DNA from: a virus
Lineage: Duplodnaviria; Heunggongvirae; Uroviricota; Caudoviricetes
Virus record (IMG/VR): IMGVR_UViG_2537561713_000005
Reading direction: 5' to 3' (one strand)
DNA: 14,831 nt
Part shown: one piece after another, positions 2,342 to 14,831 of the stretch
How the letters are laid out: every line of letters begins with the position of its first letter
How positions within the stretch are numbered: the stretch's first letter is position 1
Program-made: the position numbers and the translations under genes
Notes under the pieces: model-generated
What the model was told of the DNA's origin: nothing
Databases searched by the model: none
What the model saw: only the letters and a program-made list of their open reading frames with translations

Positions 2342-2886
2342 GCCTCCATCGCTTTATCCGGTTTGTCGGTGTTACTGCCCTGACCGTTCTCTCTGTGACG
2401 ATGCCCGTTATAGGCAAGCCGCATCGCTGACATGGTAGTGCCGCTGGAGTCGCACAGGTCTTTCACCTGTCCTGTCACTTCCAGGTCCATTTCAAAACGT
2501 GCTTTAGGTGAATTGCGAAACGTGATCGTTTTACCTGCACCGTCCACCACGATCCCCTCCCGGGTCAGCGTCACAGACTGCCCCTGATCGTCATAGACAG
2601 CCACCTCACCCGTCTGCAACCCTTTCAGGCGGTAGCGCCGGTCCGACACCGTAACAACCACCGCATGAGAACGGTCGCCATCCGGAAACAACACCACCGC
2701 TTCCGCGCCGCTGTTTGCCCTTGCGGTAAAACCGTAGGGTTCAAGATGTTCAACCCCGGCTTTGGGTTCACCGGCAATCAGGGACACATCCACGGTCTGA
2801 CATTTCGTGGCGGCACTGATGCTTTTCACCACTGCCCGCGCAATCAGGCCGAGAAGTTGTCGCTGCATGGCTTCAATCGTCCTCAT
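2338..2886 (-). CDS. Baseplate assembly protein V / spike (Mu gp45-like)
   Basis: 182-aa ORF; ATGA start/stop overlap with the hub gene; position matches Mu gp45. Confidence 0.6.
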   Translation of the reverse strand: MRTIEAMQRQLLGLIARAVVKSISAATKCQTVDVSLIAGEPKAGVEHLEPYGFTARANSGAEAVVLFPDGDRSHAVVVTVSDRRYRLKGLQTGEVAVYDDQGQSVTLTREGIVVDGAGKTITFRNSPKARFEMDLEVTGQVKDLCDSSGTTMSAMRLAYNGHRHRENGQGSNTDKPDKAMEA

Positions 2887-3965
2887 CAGAACGGGTCCTC
2901 CTGTACTCTGGCTTTTTTCTTTTTCCGCGCGCCGGGGGCTTCGGGTTCAGGCAGATAAGCATCAGGCGGGCCGACACGGATTTCCGTCAGGGTGCCGTTC
3001 TGGTCCTGAGTAAACGTGACTTCCGAGACAAGCAGTTCGGTATTGTCGAAACCACAGACTGGATCGAAGACAATCACCCGCTGGTTGGGCTGCCACAGCG
3101 TACCGTTACCCTGTCGCCAGCCCTGCACCACATAGGTGGTTTCATCCGTCCGCGCCGCCCGTTGTCGGGCTTCAAAGTCAGCACGCGCAATACAGCCTGC
3201 CCCCGTGGCCTGCCCTGTCTGCCTGATATACATCGGACGGTAACGGGCAATAAATGCGTCCTCTGTGCGGGCCCGCAGCGCGGTGGTGGTGACCTCACCG
3301 AAATCATCGTCGTTTCCGGCACGCTGCCCCGCCACCTGGTAAACAGAAAACCGCTCCCGGATACTCTTCTCCGTATCACAGGAAAGGATGTTTTCCCCAA
3401 GTACCAGCGCGGTATGTGCCCGCGTTGAGCCAATACCGCCAATCACCAGCCTGCCGTGCGGATCGTCGTAAGCCAGCGCCTGCTGCTGACCGAGTATTTT
3501 GTTGATAACCTCAATCACCGTTTCACCGTGATCAGGCTGAACATCAGGAATAACACCCGACGGCGCACCGCTGTTCACCACCTCAATGCCGAAAGGCGCA
3601 GCAAGCGCCTGCGCAATCTGCACCAGCGAGCGTCCGTTAAACTGTGTCGGTTCGGCTGCACAGTCAATCAGGTCAGCCGTCAGACTACGTCCGGCAATAC
3701 CGGTGCTGACCGAACGGGCATCGTAACGAACGGGAGTCGCCTCCACCCAGCCGGTGATCACCAGCTCATCACCAATCAGCACTTCCACTTTTGAACCGTT
3801 TTTAATGCGCGGCTGAAGCGTGGTGATACCCTCATCTCCCGGCCACTGGCGAGTGATCTCCACACTGAAATCCCGCGCCAGCCGTTCAATACCGGCACCG
3901 ATGCGCACCGATGTCCAGCCATTCCACTCCCGGCCATTTACCCGTAGCGTGACATTGTCGTTCAT
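2886..3965 (-). CDS. Baseplate hub protein (Mu gpP / late control D-like)
   Basis: 359-aa ORF following the N-like gene with overlapping stop/start; synteny with Mu N-P. Confidence 0.6.
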   Translation of the reverse strand: MNDNVTLRVNGREWNGWTSVRIGAGIERLARDFSVEITRQWPGDEGITTLQPRIKNGSKVEVLIGDELVITGWVEATPVRYDARSVSTGIAGRSLTADLIDCAAEPTQFNGRSLVQIAQALAAPFGIEVVNSGAPSGVIPDVQPDHGETVIEVINKILGQQQALAYDDPHGRLVIGGIGSTRAHTALVLGENILSCDTEKSIRERFSVYQVAGQRAGNDDDFGEVTTTALRARTEDAFIARYRPMYIRQTGQATGAGCIARADFEARQRAARTDETTYVVQGWRQGNGTLWQPNQRVIVFDPVCGFDNTELLVSEVTFTQDQNGTLTEIRVGPPDAYLPEPEAPGARKKKKARVQEDPF

Positions 3966-5305
3966 TGCACTGGCACCTTCAGAGGGATCACCGGCACAAA
4001 GCCGGGATGCGTAATGGCATTACGCCGGATAATGTCCGCGTCACGCGCCGCGTTATCAAACCAGGTCGCCGCCAGCACCAGCGCGGGTAAAACCTCATCC
4101 GGCGTGCGCTGAATGATCCGTGCAGACTGTTCAAGGCGCGTGTTGATATCCGCATTCAGATCTGCTTTCACCCGGCGCAGCGCCAGAAACAGCGCATCAC
4201 TGGTTGTACGGGACAACTCCTTATCAATTGCCGTATTCAGTGTGTCGCGAATGTCGGTCAGTTCTTCCCACGTTGGCAGGTCAACCGTGTTTTTCACCGC
4301 CGGTGCATTGTTCAGTGCCGGATGCGTGACAGAAGGCCAGCCGGTGCTCTGCGCGGGTGTTGTTGACTGCCCTACTGTGGCATTCTGCATCACCGCGGAA
4401 GTTGTGGGCGCAGGCAATCGTGTGACGGCATACGCCGCTTCGCTGATTGCGGTCGTACGAAGGGTGCTGGCAACCACGTTACGCTGCTGCGTCGCCGTGG
4501 CGGTAGTTTTACTGTCCGTTTTCCAGACGCCGCGCGGTTGCAGATCGCTGCCGAGGCTGACACCGGAAAGCGTTTTGATCATGGTGACCAGGTCGCTGGC
4601 GTTACCATAAAGGCGTTTCCCGGTACGCCACATTTTCTGCACCTGCTCAACGAAATTTTTGCCTGACGATGGTGGCGGCAGAAGTACCGAGATATCCCCC
4701 TGCAACAGCCTGGCGGCATCCGATACGGCAGAATCCACCACTTTCATCGCATCAGAAACATACCCAAGCATTGTGCTGGCATTACCGACGACGTCGTTCT
4801 GCACAAAATCTGCCACGCCATCGATACTGAAACCACTGAAGCTGTCACTGATGCAGTCATCCAGTGCAGAACAGGATGACATCAGCGTCTGCGCCGTCGC
4901 CGCACCTGAAGTGGGGTAAGAGAGTTCTCCCGCTTCGACAAACTTCAGGTCAAAGCGGACAATACGCCCTTCACTCTTCGATGTGCTGACCCGAACTTCC
5001 CCGTCAACACAGACTTTCAGCTCACCGTAAGTCGGATGGACAAGCGTGCCGGGACCGGGTTTATTCAGCGCGTCAATCAGGCGATCGCGCTGGTCAAAGC
5101 AGTCATCTCCCACCACATAAGCTGTGATGGACGGGCGGAAAGTGATTTTCCCCAGGTCTTCGGTATAGGGTTTGTCGCGGTTCGGGTATTCGTGCGTTTC
5201 CACACGACGACCGGTTCCCGCACTTTCTTCTTCAACCTTAAACGGCACACCGCGAAATGACGCGTCCTGAAGTCTGTCTTTCCACGTCATATAAACTCCG
5301 TACAT
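3962..5305 (-). CDS. DNA circularization protein N-like (Mu gp43 family)
   Basis: 447-aa ORF directly after the tape measure gene. Alternative start at 5290 (MTWKDRLQDASFRGVPF...) has a better SD (GGAG, 5-nt spacer). Confidence 0.6.
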   Translation of the reverse strand: MYGVYMTWKDRLQDASFRGVPFKVEEESAGTGRRVETHEYPNRDKPYTEDLGKITFRPSITAYVVGDDCFDQRDRLIDALNKPGPGTLVHPTYGELKVCVDGEVRVSTSKSEGRIVRFDLKFVEAGELSYPTSGAATAQTLMSSCSALDDCISDSFSGFSIDGVADFVQNDVVGNASTMLGYVSDAMKVVDSAVSDAARLLQGDISVLLPPPSSGKNFVEQVQKMWRTGKRLYGNASDLVTMIKTLSGVSLGSDLQPRGVWKTDSKTTATATQQRNVVASTLRTTAISEAAYAVTRLPAPTTSAVMQNATVGQSTTPAQSTGWPSVTHPALNNAPAVKNTVDLPTWEELTDIRDTLNTAIDKELSRTTSDALFLALRRVKADLNADINTRLEQSARIIQRTPDEVLPALVLAATWFDNAARDADIIRRNAITHPGFVPVIPLKVPVQ

Positions 5306-5326
5306 AAAAATCCCACCGGAGTGGGA
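5306..5326 (-). terminator. Small stem-loop plus T5 run between tape measure and N genes (weak attenuator candidate)
   Basis: Minus strand reads GTCCCAC-TCCG-GTGGGA followed by TTTTT, ending right at ATG 5305. 6-bp stem, short U tract. Confidence 0.2.
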
Positions 5327-5349
5327 CTCATTAACAGATTAATTTTTCA

Positions 5350-7185
5350 TTACCTGCCAAAGCGCGTATAGCCAACATCATGGCTGACATCAAAACCGCT
5401 GGATCGCGTTTCCATAACCCGCATACCCGGAGGCGAATTCACAAAAGAGACCTTGATCTCACCATCAACTTTTGGCGCAGAAGCTTTGTTAATCATGAAG
5501 GGATTCGGGCCTGTGGCACCGGAGGCGTTGTTTGACTGAGCCGGATCTACCGCCTGATAAGGTGTGTATCCCCGTGCCGGTATTCCCGTCCCATAAGCAT
5601 CATAAGCACCCGCGCCCCACTGCGCAGAGTTAATGGCATCGACCGTGTCACCGGAACTGTCGGTAAACCACTCAATAATTGGCTTCAGTTTGTCCCACAT
5701 ATCCTGAAACCACTTAACAACCGGTCCCCAGTTATTGATTACCATCCCCAGCGGCGACCAGGCAAAAACCTTCTTCAGAAGTTCCCAGCCAGCCTCAAAA
5801 TAAGGACCAATGGTTTCCCAGAGCTTCTTGAAATAAGGTCCGACAACATCCCAGTTAGTGATAATTAATCCCGCAGCCAGGGCTATCGCCGTCGCAATCA
5901 TTCCAATCGGCGTCATCGACATGATCCTGCTGACAATACTGATGGCACCGCCAACGCCCATCAATCCCAGTTTCAGAATCGCAAGACCGGCAGCAAGCCC
6001 GACGACGCCGCGAATAACCCGGGGATTTTCATCCGCAAACTTCGTGAATTTTTCCCCTAACTCCCCCAGCCATTGCGTGATATTTTTGGCGTCACCAGAA
6101 AATGCGCCGCCAATAGCCGCAAGGCCGTTAGTTGCGGTCCCCGTCATTGCCTCCCACAGGTTGGACAGCGTACCAAGCTGGGCCTGAACACGTTTATTCA
6201 GGCTGGCCTGTTTATTCATCTTCTGCTGGATCTGATCGTAGCCATCCTTTCCTTTATCGATTAGTGCATTGACCACCTGAAGGGTTTCGGCATCATCACC
6301 AAATATTGCCTTAAGTACACCTGTTCGCTTAACGTCGGTCAGTTTTCGCAGCTTTGCCAGTTGCCTGAACATGTTATCAAGACCGCCAAAACTTCCTTTG
6401 CCGTCAGTAAAATCGAGCTGTACCCCGAGTTTCTGGCGGGCCATGATTTTATTGACGTCCCTGATTTTCTTAACGCTTAATCCGGACTGGATAACTTTTC
6501 GCAGGGCGTTACCTGCCGACTCCCCGTTCATCCCCATCTGATCCATCATGACGCTGATGGGGGCAAGGCTCTGTGCAGCCTGAAGACCGTCCTTGTTCAC
6601 CATCTTCAGAACAGAGCTGGTTTTAGTGAAGAAGGACAACATGTTGGTATCGTCAACACCCAGATAAAACGCCTTCTGGATAGTGTCGAACAGCCCCATC
6701 ATGTCTTCTGACGCCGTTCCGGTAGCATCCTGCATCTTTGCAGCAAACTCAGCAGCCGCTTCCGGTGTTTTTTTCAGTTGTACCGCAAGATAAGCTGTCG
6801 CTTTACCCACACCGCCAAGAATGTTTTCTGCCGGGATCCCCTGACGCACCAGCATCTGCATCATGTTCTGGAAATCAGCCGTTGTACCGGGTAGCTGGTT
6901 ACCCAGGCCAATAGCCAGTTTATTGATGTCCTGAAAGCTCTTTCCAACCTCGCCGTTCGCATCCATCATGGCGACTTTCAGCCCGGTGGCGGCGTTTTCC
7001 TGATCGGCATAAGATTTCAGGGAAAGCGTCAGACCCGCTGCCAGTCCGCCACCAAGCGCCAGCCCACCCTGTGACGCTTCTTCCGCCTGGCGTTTAAATC
7101 CCCGGATTTTCTTTTGCATTTTCGACAGCGCGGGAGAAAGCCTGTCGACACCGGTGATCAACGCCTTAAGCTCAAATTCCGCCAT
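5350..7185 (-). CDS. Tail tape measure protein
   Basis: 611-aa ORF; Ala/Gly/Gln-rich helical N-terminal half and hydrophobic glycine-rich central segment (…GVVGLAAGLAILKLGLMGVGGAISIV…); sits after the frameshifted chaperone pair. Confidence 0.8.
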   Translation of the reverse strand: MAEFELKALITGVDRLSPALSKMQKKIRGFKRQAEEASQGGLALGGGLAAGLTLSLKSYADQENAATGLKVAMMDANGEVGKSFQDINKLAIGLGNQLPGTTADFQNMMQMLVRQGIPAENILGGVGKATAYLAVQLKKTPEAAAEFAAKMQDATGTASEDMMGLFDTIQKAFYLGVDDTNMLSFFTKTSSVLKMVNKDGLQAAQSLAPISVMMDQMGMNGESAGNALRKVIQSGLSVKKIRDVNKIMARQKLGVQLDFTDGKGSFGGLDNMFRQLAKLRKLTDVKRTGVLKAIFGDDAETLQVVNALIDKGKDGYDQIQQKMNKQASLNKRVQAQLGTLSNLWEAMTGTATNGLAAIGGAFSGDAKNITQWLGELGEKFTKFADENPRVIRGVVGLAAGLAILKLGLMGVGGAISIVSRIMSMTPIGMIATAIALAAGLIITNWDVVGPYFKKLWETIGPYFEAGWELLKKVFAWSPLGMVINNWGPVVKWFQDMWDKLKPIIEWFTDSSGDTVDAINSAQWGAGAYDAYGTGIPARGYTPYQAVDPAQSNNASGATGPNPFMINKASAPKVDGEIKVSFVNSPPGMRVMETRSSGFDVSHDVGYTRFGR

Positions 7186-10674: not shown

Positions 10675-11059
10675 TGCTGCCTCCGTGACTCTGCGTAAAT
10701 TCGCCCAGTTCCGTACACTCCAGCAGCAGAAAGCGCCGCGCCCCGTTCAGATCGCGCTGACGTTTCACCCGGTACACACTGTCATCACAGACCACCTCAT
10801 AATCAGCAGTGATCCCGCGGCGGTAGCGAATGGTGATGTAATGGGTGATGGCGTCCCCGGTCTGCGCGGTTTCCTGCCAGGTGGTGGCACTGGTCTGGAT
10901 AACCTTCGCCCATGCCCGGAACGCAACCGGGTATTGAGGCTCCACGCCAAAGTTATCCGCGGGCATATCCACCCGCTGGCGGATCAGGACGCGTTTATTC
11001 AGTTCGCCGGGGTCCGGCAGTATGTAGGTTGCGCTGGTCTGCGCCTGACGAATTTTCAT
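10649..11059 (-). CDS. Head-tail adaptor / head closure protein
   Basis: 136-aa ORF directly after the gp6-like connector gene (ATGA overlap); size and position typical. Confidence 0.5.
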   Translation of the reverse strand: MKIRQAQTSATYILPDPGELNKRVLIRQRVDMPADNFGVEPQYPVAFRAWAKVIQTSATTWQETAQTGDAITHYITIRYRRGITADYEVVCDDSVYRVKRQRDLNGARRFLLLECTELGEFTQSHGGSNGDSLFSR

Positions 11060-12697: not shown

Positions 12698-13300
12698 TTA
12701 CGCGTTAAGAAGGGTCAGGACGCGTTCACGCGCCATACGTTGATTAATGGCTTTCTGTAGCGCGCCGCTGTTGCGCGCCTCCTGCCATGCTTTCATGGAG
12801 CGAACAGCCGAGTCAGCCTCCTGATAGGCAGGATATGTCACAGGACTGACATCCAGCAGACGGGAAAAGCGGGTTATCTCGCGAATAACAACCCCGTCCT
12901 CATCCTGATACCACTCCTCGCCGTCACGGGCGACACGGAAAGCAAAAGATGACTGGTTAATATCTCCACGTTGCATCGGGGCCAGCACCAGATCACGAAT
13001 GGTCTGTGTCTCCGGAGCCTGGATGTCATAGCGCAATCCGCGCTCATCAACTGAAAGATTCAGCGTGCCTGCTGCACTACGCCCAAGAATAAAATTAGGA
13101 TCGTGGTTAAACAGTGCGCGTACATCATCACCAAGCACATCGTCAAAAGCGCCGGGCCGGATGATTTCGCGGAATGAACCAAATATCAGCTCAGAACGAC
13201 AGTCAAACACCGATCCATAACCGATAATGTGCGCAGGGTTATCGTCATGCCGCTCAGCACGCACCTCACCGCTGTAACAACGGATTTCACGGTCATTCAT
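12698..13300 (-). CDS. Prohead maturation protease, HK97 family
   Basis: Track ORF runs to 13357; I prefer ATG 13300 (MNDREIRCYSGEV…), which overlaps the portal stop as ATGAATGA and has GAGGG upstream. Body motifs (…HIIGYGSVFDCRSELIFGSFREIIRPGAFDDVL…NHDPNFILGRS…) are protease-like. Confidence 0.8.
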   Translation of the reverse strand: MNDREIRCYSGEVRAERHDDNPAHIIGYGSVFDCRSELIFGSFREIIRPGAFDDVLGDDVRALFNHDPNFILGRSAAGTLNLSVDERGLRYDIQAPETQTIRDLVLAPMQRGDINQSSFAFRVARDGEEWYQDEDGVVIREITRFSRLLDVSPVTYPAYQEADSAVRSMKAWQEARNSGALQKAINQRMARERVLTLLNA

Positions 13301-13901
13301 TGGTTTTTCCCTCATCATTTTTTGGGGGCTTAAAATCTCCTGCCGGGTTAGCAGCATTCACGCTTACCAGCATCTCATCCAGCCCTTCAACCGGATTCAT
13401 ATCCTCGAATGCGCGGGCTTCATTACGGCTCATCCATCCATCGGTAATAGCGAAGTGATAGAATTGCGCGCGCTCCTGCGGAGTTCCGCGTAAAAGCCCC
13501 GTCAGATTGAACCTAACGTAATACCCGGCGGCTAACTCAGCGCGGGTAAACAAGCGACGGTTAAGCTCCTGCTCCCAGTTCGTTACCCACGGCATCATCG
13601 TGTAGCGGACAAACTGAATCGCCTGCGCAGAAATATTGGAGAAGGTGGCTTTTTCGAGGTCATTAATCATGTGCGCAGGAATATTGAAAATACCGGCAAT
13701 CATTGAACGGTTCAGTTTCATCATGTCAATGATCTGAGCGTCAACTGGCGACACAGTCAGTGCCTTGTAATCCAGTCGGGACTGGCCTGGCTTGTATTGC
13801 TTCCAGCCCTCGCTTTTGTGGCTTTCGCAATAACCTGACGGGTCAGTCGTGGTATGGCGGCAGCCGCGAACTCGGCAGGCTTTTGGGGTTCGTGGTGGCA
13901 T
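13293..13901 (-). pseudogene. Chimeric ORF: HNH-endonuclease-like N-terminus (~45 aa) joined in frame to the portal C-terminal ~165 aa; likely deletion remnant
   Basis: ATG 13901 with GGAG 5 nt upstream; begins MPPRTPKACRVRGCRHTTTDPSGYCESH (Cx4GC…GYCxxH zinc-ribbon start of terminase-associated phage HNH endonucleases), then …GLLRGTPQERAQFYHFAITDGWMSRNEARAFEDMNPVEG…, typical of the HK97-family portal C-terminus. Far too short for a portal. Confidence 0.6.
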
Positions 13902-14020
13902 ATGTACTCCAATGAAGAAGCTACCGACATAGCCTCCTCCATTCGTCGTGAAACTATTTTCATCTACCCAGTAATGAATTCTTTGAAGAGTTGTAATCAA
14001 TACAACTCGCTAATGGAGAG

Positions 14021-14044
14021 GCTTGTCTCACACGTGAGACAAGC
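14021..14044. promoter_or_regulatory. Perfect inverted repeat GCTTGTCTCA-CACG-TGAGACAAGC with T-rich 3' flank
   Basis: 10-11 bp arms centred on CACGTG, followed on the plus strand by TTCCTGTTTGATTT; lies in the divergent intergenic region. Confidence 0.3.
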
Positions 14045-14123
14045 TTCCTGTTTGATTTACTGGACACTATAGAAGGACAGAATGCCTTCCTCACTCGAAT
14101 CACATCAATTAAGGAGGTTCAAC

Positions 14124-14246
14124 ATGTTTCATTCCACAAGTCATCAGGCTGTAATTATGGCAGCATCAGTTTGTGCCACAGACCTTTTCCGCTTCACTTT
14201 GAGCCTGATTCATTTCTACCTGACCGGCTCGCCTCTATCTTTTTAA
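14124..14246 (+). CDS. Hypothetical small protein (40 aa), hydrophobic
   Basis: Not in the track (under length cutoff). AAGGAGG 6 nt upstream of ATG 14124. My translation: MFHSTSHQAVIMAASVCATDLFRFTLSLIHFYLTGSPLSF; stop TAA at 14244..14246. Confidence 0.4.
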   Translation: MFHSTSHQAVIMAASVCATDLFRFTLSLIHFYLTGSPLSF

Positions 14247-14426
14247 TCCCCGCTTTATCCAAATTGCATTGCCAGAATGCCGACAACAGACTGACATTCA
14301 AATCCTGACTACCTCCAATAGTCTGACCGTACACCTATATAGTTTTAATTTTCATCAATCCATTTAACTATCGTTTAATTGTTGTCACATAGGATTCTGC
14401 CGTTTTTAACAATGCAGGATAATAAG

Positions 14427-14720
14427 ATGAAAAAAATGTTATTTTCTGCCGCTCTGGCAATGCTTATTACAGGATGTGCTCAACAGACGTTTACTGTTGG
14501 AAACAAACCGACAGCAGTAACACCAAAGGAAACCATCACCCATCATTTCTTCGTTTCGGGAATTGGACAGGAGAAAACTGTTGATGCAGCCAAAATTTGT
14601 GGCGGCGCAGAAAATGTGGTTAAAACAGAAACCCAGCAAACATTCGTAAATGGATTGCTCGGTTTTATTACTTTAGGCATTTATACTCCGCTGGAAGCGC
14701 GGGTGTATTGCTCACAATAA
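14427..14720 (+). CDS. bor: Bor family outer-membrane lipoprotein (lambda Bor / Iss-like)
   Basis: 97 aa from ATG 14427 (AGGA 7 nt upstream): MKKMLFSAALAMLITGCAQQTFTV…EARVYCSQ, with signal peptide and lipobox LITG|C; near-identical to lambda Bor as I recall it. The track start at 14379 is an upstream in-frame extension. Confidence 0.9.
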   Translation: MKKMLFSAALAMLITGCAQQTFTVGNKPTAVTPKETITHHFFVSGIGQEKTVDAAKICGGAENVVKTETQQTFVNGLLGFITLGIYTPLEARVYCSQ

Positions 14721-14730
14721 TTGCATGAGT

Positions 14731-14748
14731 TGCCCATCGATATGGGCA
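14731..14748. terminator. Hairpin between the convergent bor and Rz 3' ends
   Basis: TGCCCAT-cgat-ATGGGCA, 7-bp stem, in the 31-nt gap between the two stop codons; no clear U tract on either side. Confidence 0.25.
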
Positions 14749-14751
14749 GCG

Positions 14752-14831
14752 CTATCTGCACTGCTCATTAATATACTTCTGGGTTCCTTCCAGTTGTTTT
14801 TGCATAGTGATCAGCCTCTCTCTGAGGGTGA
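14752..14831 (-). CDS. Rz: Rz-like i-spanin, C-terminal 25 codons (partial, starts beyond window end)
   Basis: Minus-strand frame reads …TLRERLITMQKQLEGTQKYINEQCR then TAG at 14754..14752, matching the lambda Rz C-terminus as I recall it; convergent with bor as in lambda. Confidence 0.7.
   Translation of the reverse strand, partial: TLRERLITMQKQLEGTQKYINEQCR

Follow-up and report, generated by a model that had tools for sequence, protein, structure and literature searches.

Satellite elements respond to their helper phages: the late promoters of P4 are activated in trans via Ogr of P2, and phage-inducible chromosomal islands (PICI) and Staphylococcus aureus pathogenicity islands (SaPI) are induced by helper proteins. 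Type I toxin-antitoxin (TA) systems encode membrane toxins such as Hok, Ldr, Ibs and TisB, and hok/sok excludes phage T4. The F-plasmid protein PifA, a large constitutive protein triggered by T7 gp1.2/gp10, excludes T7. In the 1990s the Klaenhammer laboratory reportedly fused a middle promoter of the Lactococcus phage phi31 to a lethal restriction cassette, and Fischer and Hackl are said to have found in 2016 that the integrated mavirus virophage of Cafeteria is reactivated by the transcription machinery of the giant virus CroV. Here we analyse a stretch of 14,831 nucleotides from a tailed phage (Caudoviricetes; IMG/VR record IMGVR_UViG_2537561713_000005), the whole of which is called the window, and in it a cassette where a 40-codon open reading frame (ORF) is preceded by motifs matching the promoters of T7- and SP6-like lytic phages. 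The window is a prophage of Escherichia coli O157:H7 and related strains and is 100% identical to many complete genomes. The initial annotation of this DNA had reported the ORF with its ribosome binding site; the decisive feature, the phage-polymerase promoters, lies upstream of it. Such a promoter-array cassette appears to be new, as a literature search found no description of one, although its coverage was incomplete and a prior description is possible.

The cassette is located on the plus strand and contains the following features:

13998-14020, plus strand: P1, a T7-like (Berlinvirus-type) phage RNA polymerase promoter motif, CAATACAACTCGCTAATGGAGAG, with a predicted transcription start at G14015.
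14018-14047, plus strand: a stable, terminator-like hairpin (RNA fold -21.1 kcal/mol, z = -5.5), also flagged by a scan for terminator-like sites.
14055-14077, plus strand: P2, a predicted K1E/Vectrevirus-type (SP6-like) phage RNA polymerase promoter, ATTTACTGGACACTATAGAAGGA, with a predicted transcription start at G14072.
14072-14123, plus strand: the 52-nt leader of the predicted P2 transcript, holding the Shine-Dalgarno (SD) sequence AAGGAGG at 14111-14117.
14124-14246, plus strand: the 40-codon ORF, the presumed payload, encoding a small helical hydrophobic peptide, MFHSTSHQAVIMAASVCATDLFRFTLSLIHFYLTGSPLSF, and ending with the stop codon TAA at 14244-14246.

Judged by its sequence, P2 is a K1E-type phage polymerase promoter. 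Positions 14055-14072 (ATTTACTGGACACTATAG) agree with the K1E consensus at 18/18 positions, and the P2 region is identical to K1E 13923-13947 over 25/25 nt. K1E possesses 12 promoter sites, all on the plus strand and mostly in gaps between annotated genes, and the exact P2 18-mer is present at five of them, including the site upstream of the capsid gene. P2 therefore combines the consensus match with the multi-copy, co-oriented and intergenic placement in the cognate phage that mark promoters of the SP6/K1E type. A BLAST search with the 83-nt upstream region matched Vectrevirus genomes at 6-9 places each. In the window the motif occurs once, and a match with at most 3 mismatches was found in only 1 of 200 shuffles. 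In SfIV, a Shigella phage without the bor gene that neighbours the ORF in the window, the P2 homologue ATTTAGGTGACACTTTAG corresponds to the SP6 consensus with one mismatch, and SP6-like Salmonella phages are matched at 2-5 places each.

P1 resembles the promoters of the Berlinvirus PhiV-1, whose genome contains 10 sites fitting the pattern AATACGACTCACTA(A/T)TGGGA. The window copy differs from the PhiV-1 site ATCAATACGACTCACTAATGGG by 3 mismatches and carries G instead of A at -6, while most E. coli copies have A and keep CACTAATGG. The SfIV homologue of P1, AATACGACTCACTAATGGGGAG, shows a single mismatch to the PhiV-1 site at 33335. In a BLAST search the SfIV P1 region found 6-8 places in each T7-like phage genome that it matched, and some of these places carry the annotation 'promoter'.

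The hairpin between the two promoters is likewise shared with lytic phages. Its core at 14025-14040 (GTCTCACACGTGAGAC) is a 16-mer identical to K1E position 10750, and three of the 6 copies of this palindrome in K1E are found directly upstream of promoters. An alternative prophage allele, GTCCAAC..GTTGGAC, equals the SP6/F4M1D version of the repeat, and among 9 hairpin variants the compensatory double changes at two base pairs are exactly the switch from K1E to SP6. The palindrome represents a conserved, mostly intergenic 16-bp repeat of the Molineuxvirinae with the sequence GTCTCACATGTGAGAC in K1E (positions 6805, 6987, 9573, 10750, 15901 and 32586) and GTC(C/T)AACNNGTTGGAC in SP6 (8 sites) and F4M1D (7 sites), often just ahead of a promoter or gene start; it was not found in Berlinvirus PhiV-1. 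In local BLAST comparisons with K1E and SP6, similarity to the cassette was limited to promoter and palindrome. The leader that follows is nearly invariant and free of indels in 14 unique upstream variants representing 76 copies, and is predicted to lack significant secondary structure (z = 0.2).

No sigma-70-like promoter was detected in 13800-14831 on either strand by a crude consensus scan that also misses the bor promoter, so that weak promoters are possible. The phage-polymerase promoters together with the lack of a sigma-70-like site argue against a factor expressed in the resting lysogen, and the lysogenic-conversion role considered in the initial annotation is accordingly not favoured.

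Promoter motifs are strictly coupled to the ORF in position and orientation. We retrieved 59 loci (461 kb) using only an anchor in the gene for the o-spanin (Rz1), an outer-membrane lysis protein, and scanned them for the consensus promoters of K1E, SP6, F4M1D, PhiV-1, T7 and KpV475, allowing up to 2 mismatches. All 58 matches are in sense orientation and fall within 340 nt upstream of the ORF, a space of 19 kb in total; none is antisense and none lies in the other 442 kb of these loci. Loci with the same o-spanin end but without promoter motifs also lack the SD-led ORF. The presence of exact lytic-phage promoters arrayed in prophages is a statistically solid and unexplained observation, even if the peptide is not the effector. 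The cassette is present in 632 of 5426 complete E. coli genomes and on only 3 plasmids, and in the 25 records listed out of 633, RefSeq annotation by the Prokaryotic Genome Annotation Pipeline (PGAP) places no feature under it. Across several genera it is found beside varied lysis and terminase modules, mostly without bor. The accessory, moron-like position initially proposed holds in that the cassette occurs in several mosaics between the lysis genes and the HNH/terminase genes, on the opposite strand. Like a lambdoid moron it forms a separate unit at a module boundary of the late operon; the host promoter of such morons was not seen in the crude sigma-70 scan.

The ORF very likely represents a real small gene for a membrane-type peptide. 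Direct reading of the sequence confirmed the near-consensus ribosome binding site and the 40 codons: AAGGAGG at 14111-14117 is followed by the 6-nt spacer TTCAAC and by ATG 14124, and this is the single AAGGAGG-N(4-9)-ATG arrangement in the window, both strands considered. The ribosome binding site and ORF by themselves are weak evidence that does not exceed chance, since 34 of 200 dinucleotide-preserving shuffles of the window hold at least one such site. An in-frame ATG at 14082 of the window allele, 10 nt past the predicted P2 start and just downstream of AAGGA, would yield a 54-aa product. As this extension is interrupted by a stop (TAA) in most relatives and alleles, ATG 14082 is probably not the conserved start. 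The hydrophobic character described initially is moderate rather than strong, with a grand average of hydropathicity (GRAVY) of 0.80 and a top 17-residue window of 1.5. AlphaFold predicts one helix over residues 2-34 with a mean predicted local distance difference test (pLDDT) score of 82.

The product belongs to no described family, in agreement with the initial annotation. Searches of Pfam, PHROGs, NCBIfam and PADLOC with 3-10 ORF-family members as queries gave nothing significant, and the PADLOC-DB profiles of known defence proteins returned 0 families for three members. For a holin or antiholin, Pfam and PHROG gave no match, and the ORF lies on the strand opposite the lysis genes. As a small hydrophobic single-helix peptide the product is of the kind encoded by type I toxin genes, the window peptide standing at the weakly hydrophobic end of its family; the scans found no minus-strand promoter-like site for an antitoxin, no Pfam or NCBIfam toxin family, and in Rfam (13600-14831, permissive threshold) only noise and no known RNA family. 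One phage record, ON470612.1, annotates exactly this ORF (30974-31096) as the 'hypothetical protein' URC10065.1. Records ON470607.1, ON470621.1 and ON470600.1 carry the label 'protein of unknown function DUF4347' somewhere under a 481-nt match, feature and label both being unconfirmed.

The reading frame is conserved among relatives, a point that the initial annotation had proposed to check. It is open with identical start and stop in 82/82 IMG/VR copies anchored on promoter and leader, and is likewise open in 105 copies anchored inside the ORF and in SfIV (84% DNA identity). For a wider family scan the anchor was placed directly beyond the stop codon, in DNA that codes for the o-spanin and belongs to neither ORF nor promoters; this yielded 48 unique ORFs of 32-41 codons ending at the same stop (for example MLEVLNSLAPFAPAINAIVILICSIIAKYYGVLPLPF, MSHIEIIQLIDSYVLLATHIICLIIAYRKLIADLSRRS and MSQNQFFELAKAYADGINAIISLICLLIAKHYGVLQYF). 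Every one of the 48 has a GGAG/GGAGG-type SD sequence and ATG, the SD lying within the 18 nt before the ATG and, by eye, about 5-9 nt from the start. The family has a mean GRAVY of 0.92, compared with 0.16 for the other plus-strand frames of the same spans, which contain stops in 76% of cases. Even subfamilies that have almost no N-terminal sequence in common agree in SD, ATG, length, end point and hydrophobicity.

The last 53 nt of the ORF are antisense to the o-spanin 3' end. In codons 20-40 of the window subfamily, changes fall mostly at ORF third positions, and because these correspond to second positions of the antisense o-spanin gene, the o-spanin frame is not the one preserved. Antisense o-spanin as the sole cause of the conserved 3' half was rejected on the basis of these third-position changes and of the ORF being kept beside a dead o-spanin remnant, with the reservation that site counts are small. 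A tblastn search of 50,697 phage records with a typical family peptide gave 2 weak matches, both in temperate phages and none in Autographiviridae, indicating that the ORF was not captured from lytic phages.

Cassettes of other specificity are found in Klebsiella prophages. A homologous-protein search with the 40-aa peptide led to this branch; it returned only 18 clusters, as gene callers rarely call the ORF. The Klebsiella homologue is 38 aa long, has only the C-terminal sequence LSLIHFYLTGSPLSF in common with the window peptide and occupies the equivalent lysis/packaging junction, but with different terminase and lysis modules beside it. Upstream of it, up to four promoter motifs form an array:

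Motif 1: T7/K11-like, with a specificity region that differs between loci.
Motif 2: the palindrome followed by AATAGTGGCGAGTATAGAA.
Motif 3: TTTAATGTTAC(A/C)(C/G)GAGTAGGAAC.
Motif 4: ATAAGTTACACAATAGAA.

Three of the four match Klebsiella-infecting Autographiviridae. Motif 2 is identical (19/19) to the promoter of the Klebsiella Molineuxvirinae phage F4M1D, where it occurs in six exact copies and at 13 sites with up to 3 mismatches, one of them preceded by the same palindrome. Motif 3 has its match in Drulisvirus KpV475, in the sequence that directly follows the RNA polymerase gene; three multi-copy contigs from the motif-3 scan were considered as promoter carriers and rejected as coding repeats. 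In 13 loci with Klebsiella-type cassettes, a second conserved hairpin, TTTGTCTC(C/T)TATAAGAGACAAA, precedes the first promoter motif at a distance of about 20-25 nt. It has no equivalent in the E. coli-type cassette and may insulate the array from upstream transcription.

Two further SP6-like promoter alleles, each found in six loci, differ at -12 to -10: ATTTAATGGACACTATAG and ATTTACTTGACACTATAG. These AATG and ACTT variants may target unsampled phages or represent tolerated drift, the latter because K1E itself varies at -12 to -10. Among species-representative genomes, one search pattern gave 0 loci and the other 3 loci with this o-spanin end, in Pseudocitrobacter faecalis DSM 27453, Enterobacter sp. 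ECC-175 and a Pseudescherichia metagenome-assembled genome (MAG). Only the Pseudocitrobacter locus contains the cassette, with the T7-like motif TTAACTATCACTATAGGGG and the peptide MTHEKIVKLATAYTMLIGAVINLATHLLNLLTALPQSF; the Enterobacter and Pseudescherichia loci have neither promoters nor ORF.

In the window the cassette is flanked by remnants and by a moron:

13293-13903, minus strand: the N-terminus of the HNH endonuclease fused to the C-terminus of the portal protein (junction at about 13775-13779), the left boundary of the cassette.
14194-14313, minus strand: a 3' remnant of an SfIV-type o-spanin (Rz1) gene, translation ...LNVSLLSAFWQCNLDKAGIKKIEASRSGRNESGSK*, without start and without lipobox, antisense to codons 24-40.
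14428-14720, plus strand: the bor/iss lipoprotein gene, a lambda-type moron, named Iss in RefSeq and Bor in the lambda and phage 21 records.

In this prophage the head genes are of HK97 type, and the packaging module is of the HNH / P27-family terS / terL / portal kind. Pairwise BLAST against the intact FRIK944 prophage shows that 3,460 bp were lost (positions 2366-5825 of that locus), comprising terS, terL and the 5' part of the portal gene. The window prophage is consequently defective and cannot package DNA. A cos site was considered for the region and rejected: the SfIV record stops shortly after the HNH gene, and the HNH-terS interval, which holds cos in HK97, is deleted in the window.

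Positions 13951-14313, which include the ORF, are 84% homologous to the SfIV region between the o-spanin and HNH genes. SfIV gp53 is an intact o-spanin with the lipobox LLPLLTGC and the same tail as the window remnant. At about 14312, some 65 nt past the ORF stop, SfIV homology ends and lambda bor homology begins. Insertion of the bor moron into the 3' part of an SfIV-type o-spanin gene, or recombination there, left a dead remnant of 120 nt; the Rz/Rz1 that the prophage uses is of lambda type and lies downstream of bor. The ORF and bor/iss are on the same strand and 181 nt apart. No terminator-like site was found in 14247-14427; besides the upstream hairpin, the scan gave one site inside bor (14447-14459) and one after it (14779-14793). 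The association with bor suggested initially is not supported: the ORF stretch is SfIV-like, SfIV has no bor, the bor homology starts only past the ORF and the ORF family occurs elsewhere without bor. The gene is thus only a neighbour.

On balance we lean towards a mechanism in which the cassette is silent in the lysogen and would be transcribed only by the RNA polymerase of an invading phage, the peptide then aborting or blocking the infection. Lying at the lysis/packaging junction on the strand opposite the late operon, the cassette would not be read by the host polymerase, and the upstream hairpin may also insulate it. An infecting T7/SP6-like phage makes its own polymerase, which would recognise P2 and possibly P1, so that the array could act as an infection sensor; a P1 transcript would have its 5' end at the base of the hairpin. 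The short, unstructured leader and consensus SD could then support a burst of peptide translation. The predicted single-helix membrane peptide might harm the envelope or its energetics or otherwise block the invader, and the aborted infection would protect sister lysogens. In the window, read-through from P1 and P2 would reach bor. From the anatomy of the cassette, a role of the peptide in abortive infection or exclusion is probable.

More tentatively, and as a possibility we would rate somewhat below even, such cassettes could form a widespread, multi-specific 'promoter-trap' immunity of Enterobacteriaceae lambdoid prophages that needs neither protein receptor nor antitoxin. A fast-evolving single-helix membrane peptide would abort infection, and the arrays, copied phage palindrome included, would follow local lytic phages in their promoter specificities, with K1E-type promoters in E. 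coli, the SP6 type in Shigella phage SfIV and F4M1D-, KpV475- and T7-like types in Klebsiella.

Several observations weigh against the proposed mechanism. In the E. coli subfamily no purifying signature is seen in codons 2-19, where the variable columns number 9/10/4 at codon positions 1/2/3. The check for synonymous variation that the initial annotation had called for was thus answered in its favour for codons 20-40 and against it for codons 2-19, where changes are mostly non-synonymous; even in codons 20-40 the third-position bias depends on few sites, and one data set is biased by the choice of anchor. The window subfamily is the least hydrophobic of the family. Upstream, the 3 mismatches of the window P1 include one at -6, and a hairpin of -21 kcal/mol stands between P1 and the ORF. 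Klebsiella motif 4 has no cognate phage in the collections searched, a 15-mer scan giving chance matches only, and the AATG and ACTT variants have no multi-copy cognate phage contig in IMG/VR. The ORF sequence is also absent from the supplements of the Sakai ribosome profiling (RIBOseq) data, which is uninformative either way.

The promoters could be real while the effector is an RNA or read-through transcription, acting antisense over o-spanin and lysis genes, into bor in the window, or leftward into prophage regulatory genes. This would fit the constant antisense overlap of the ORF 3' half with the o-spanin 3' end, the lack of a terminator-like site between ORF and bor, and the N-terminal half of the E. 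coli peptides, where no coding constraint is visible. What lies downstream varies, however, from bor here to antisense lysis genes elsewhere and various inserts in Klebsiella. The constant element is the SD-ATG-hydrophobic ORF, and a correctly spaced consensus SD in 48/48 variants is hard to reconcile with a non-coding RNA, so that we regard this explanation as unlikely. An effect at the level of DNA or polymerase, by titration, R-loops, transcription-replication conflicts or mimicry of a T7-like origin with the ORF irrelevant, is far less probable again. The closest counterparts of the layout are hairpin-promoter pairs just after the RNA polymerase gene of K1E and SP6, a position that corresponds to the T7 primary origin. 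But with 10-13 promoters to serve on many copies of the phage genome, the enzyme cannot be titrated by 1-4 chromosomal ones, and the strict coupling of promoters to the SD-led ORF would be left unexplained.

It is quite improbable that the cassette is a non-functional fossil, scraps of T7/SP6-like DNA recombined during co-infection with a chance frame held open through linkage to o-spanin. The motifs come from three Autographiviridae subfamilies in tandem, always in sense and always ahead of an SD-led ORF, with no other lytic-phage sequence alongside; promoter and leader remain free of indels while neighbouring sequence diverges, and the cassette spans many mosaic contexts in several genera. 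For a fossil speak the defective state of the window prophage, the hairpin-plus-promoter layout copied from phage and the fact that SD and ATG alone are not significant. Slightly less probable still is an ordinary moron or lysogenic-conversion gene expressed by host RNA polymerase in the lysogen and functionally tied to bor. The ORF does adjoin bor, shares its strand and has a small hydrophobic product, yet no sigma-70-like promoter was found in 13800-14831, a terminator-like hairpin stands just upstream, the cassette lies in SfIV-like sequence without bor, and most family members have no bor nearby.

If the proposed mechanism is correct, it would constitute a form of infection sensing outside the current catalogue of bacterial defences, in which the invader's own specific transcription machinery is the trigger. 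The mechanism would account for the maintenance of a toxic gene that has no antitoxin and, in part, for the narrow, patchy host range seen in T7/SP6-like phages, a group with many candidates for therapy of E. coli K1 and Klebsiella infections. It would further predict phage escape via changed promoter or polymerase specificity and point to many more small genes never called by annotation pipelines.

The proposed mechanism has partial parallels among known systems. As in bor and lom morons, an extra transcription unit lies between late genes at a module boundary, its reading opposed to or independent of the late operon, and a hairpin frequently stands beside it; those morons have host-type promoters active in the lysogen, whereas here phage-polymerase promoters are found and no sigma-70-like site. 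The peptide shares with type I toxins the form of a hydrophobic single helix of fewer than 60 aa whose sudden synthesis would damage the membrane and could abort phage growth. In sequence it is unrelated to them. The cassette shows neither a host promoter nor any sign of an antisense antitoxin RNA, and would be kept silent by promoter orthogonality instead of by an antitoxin. Similar to PifA, a resident element would specifically abort infection by the T7 group with membrane damage, but the trigger would be transcription itself.

In satellites, too, a component of the infecting phage's expression programme turns on resident genes, as is proposed here. Satellites use the helper to propagate themselves, and the signal to which they respond is an activator or antirepressor protein, while in the present case the invader would be an unrelated lytic podovirus whose polymerase reads the cassette directly. 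With mavirus the cassette would have in common promoters specific to the invader's transcription apparatus, silence until infection and protection of the population. That system is eukaryotic and activates a whole, replicating virophage genome; in the bacterial prophage there is one small ORF and no evidence of mobilisation. In the phi31 suicide cassette a phage-only promoter likewise drives a lethal gene so that infected cells alone die, the outcome proposed here. That construct is man-made and combines a phage activator acting on host RNA polymerase with a nuclease payload. The cassette described here is natural, carries several specificities in an array ahead of a 40-aa peptide payload and would be read by the phage's own single-subunit polymerase.

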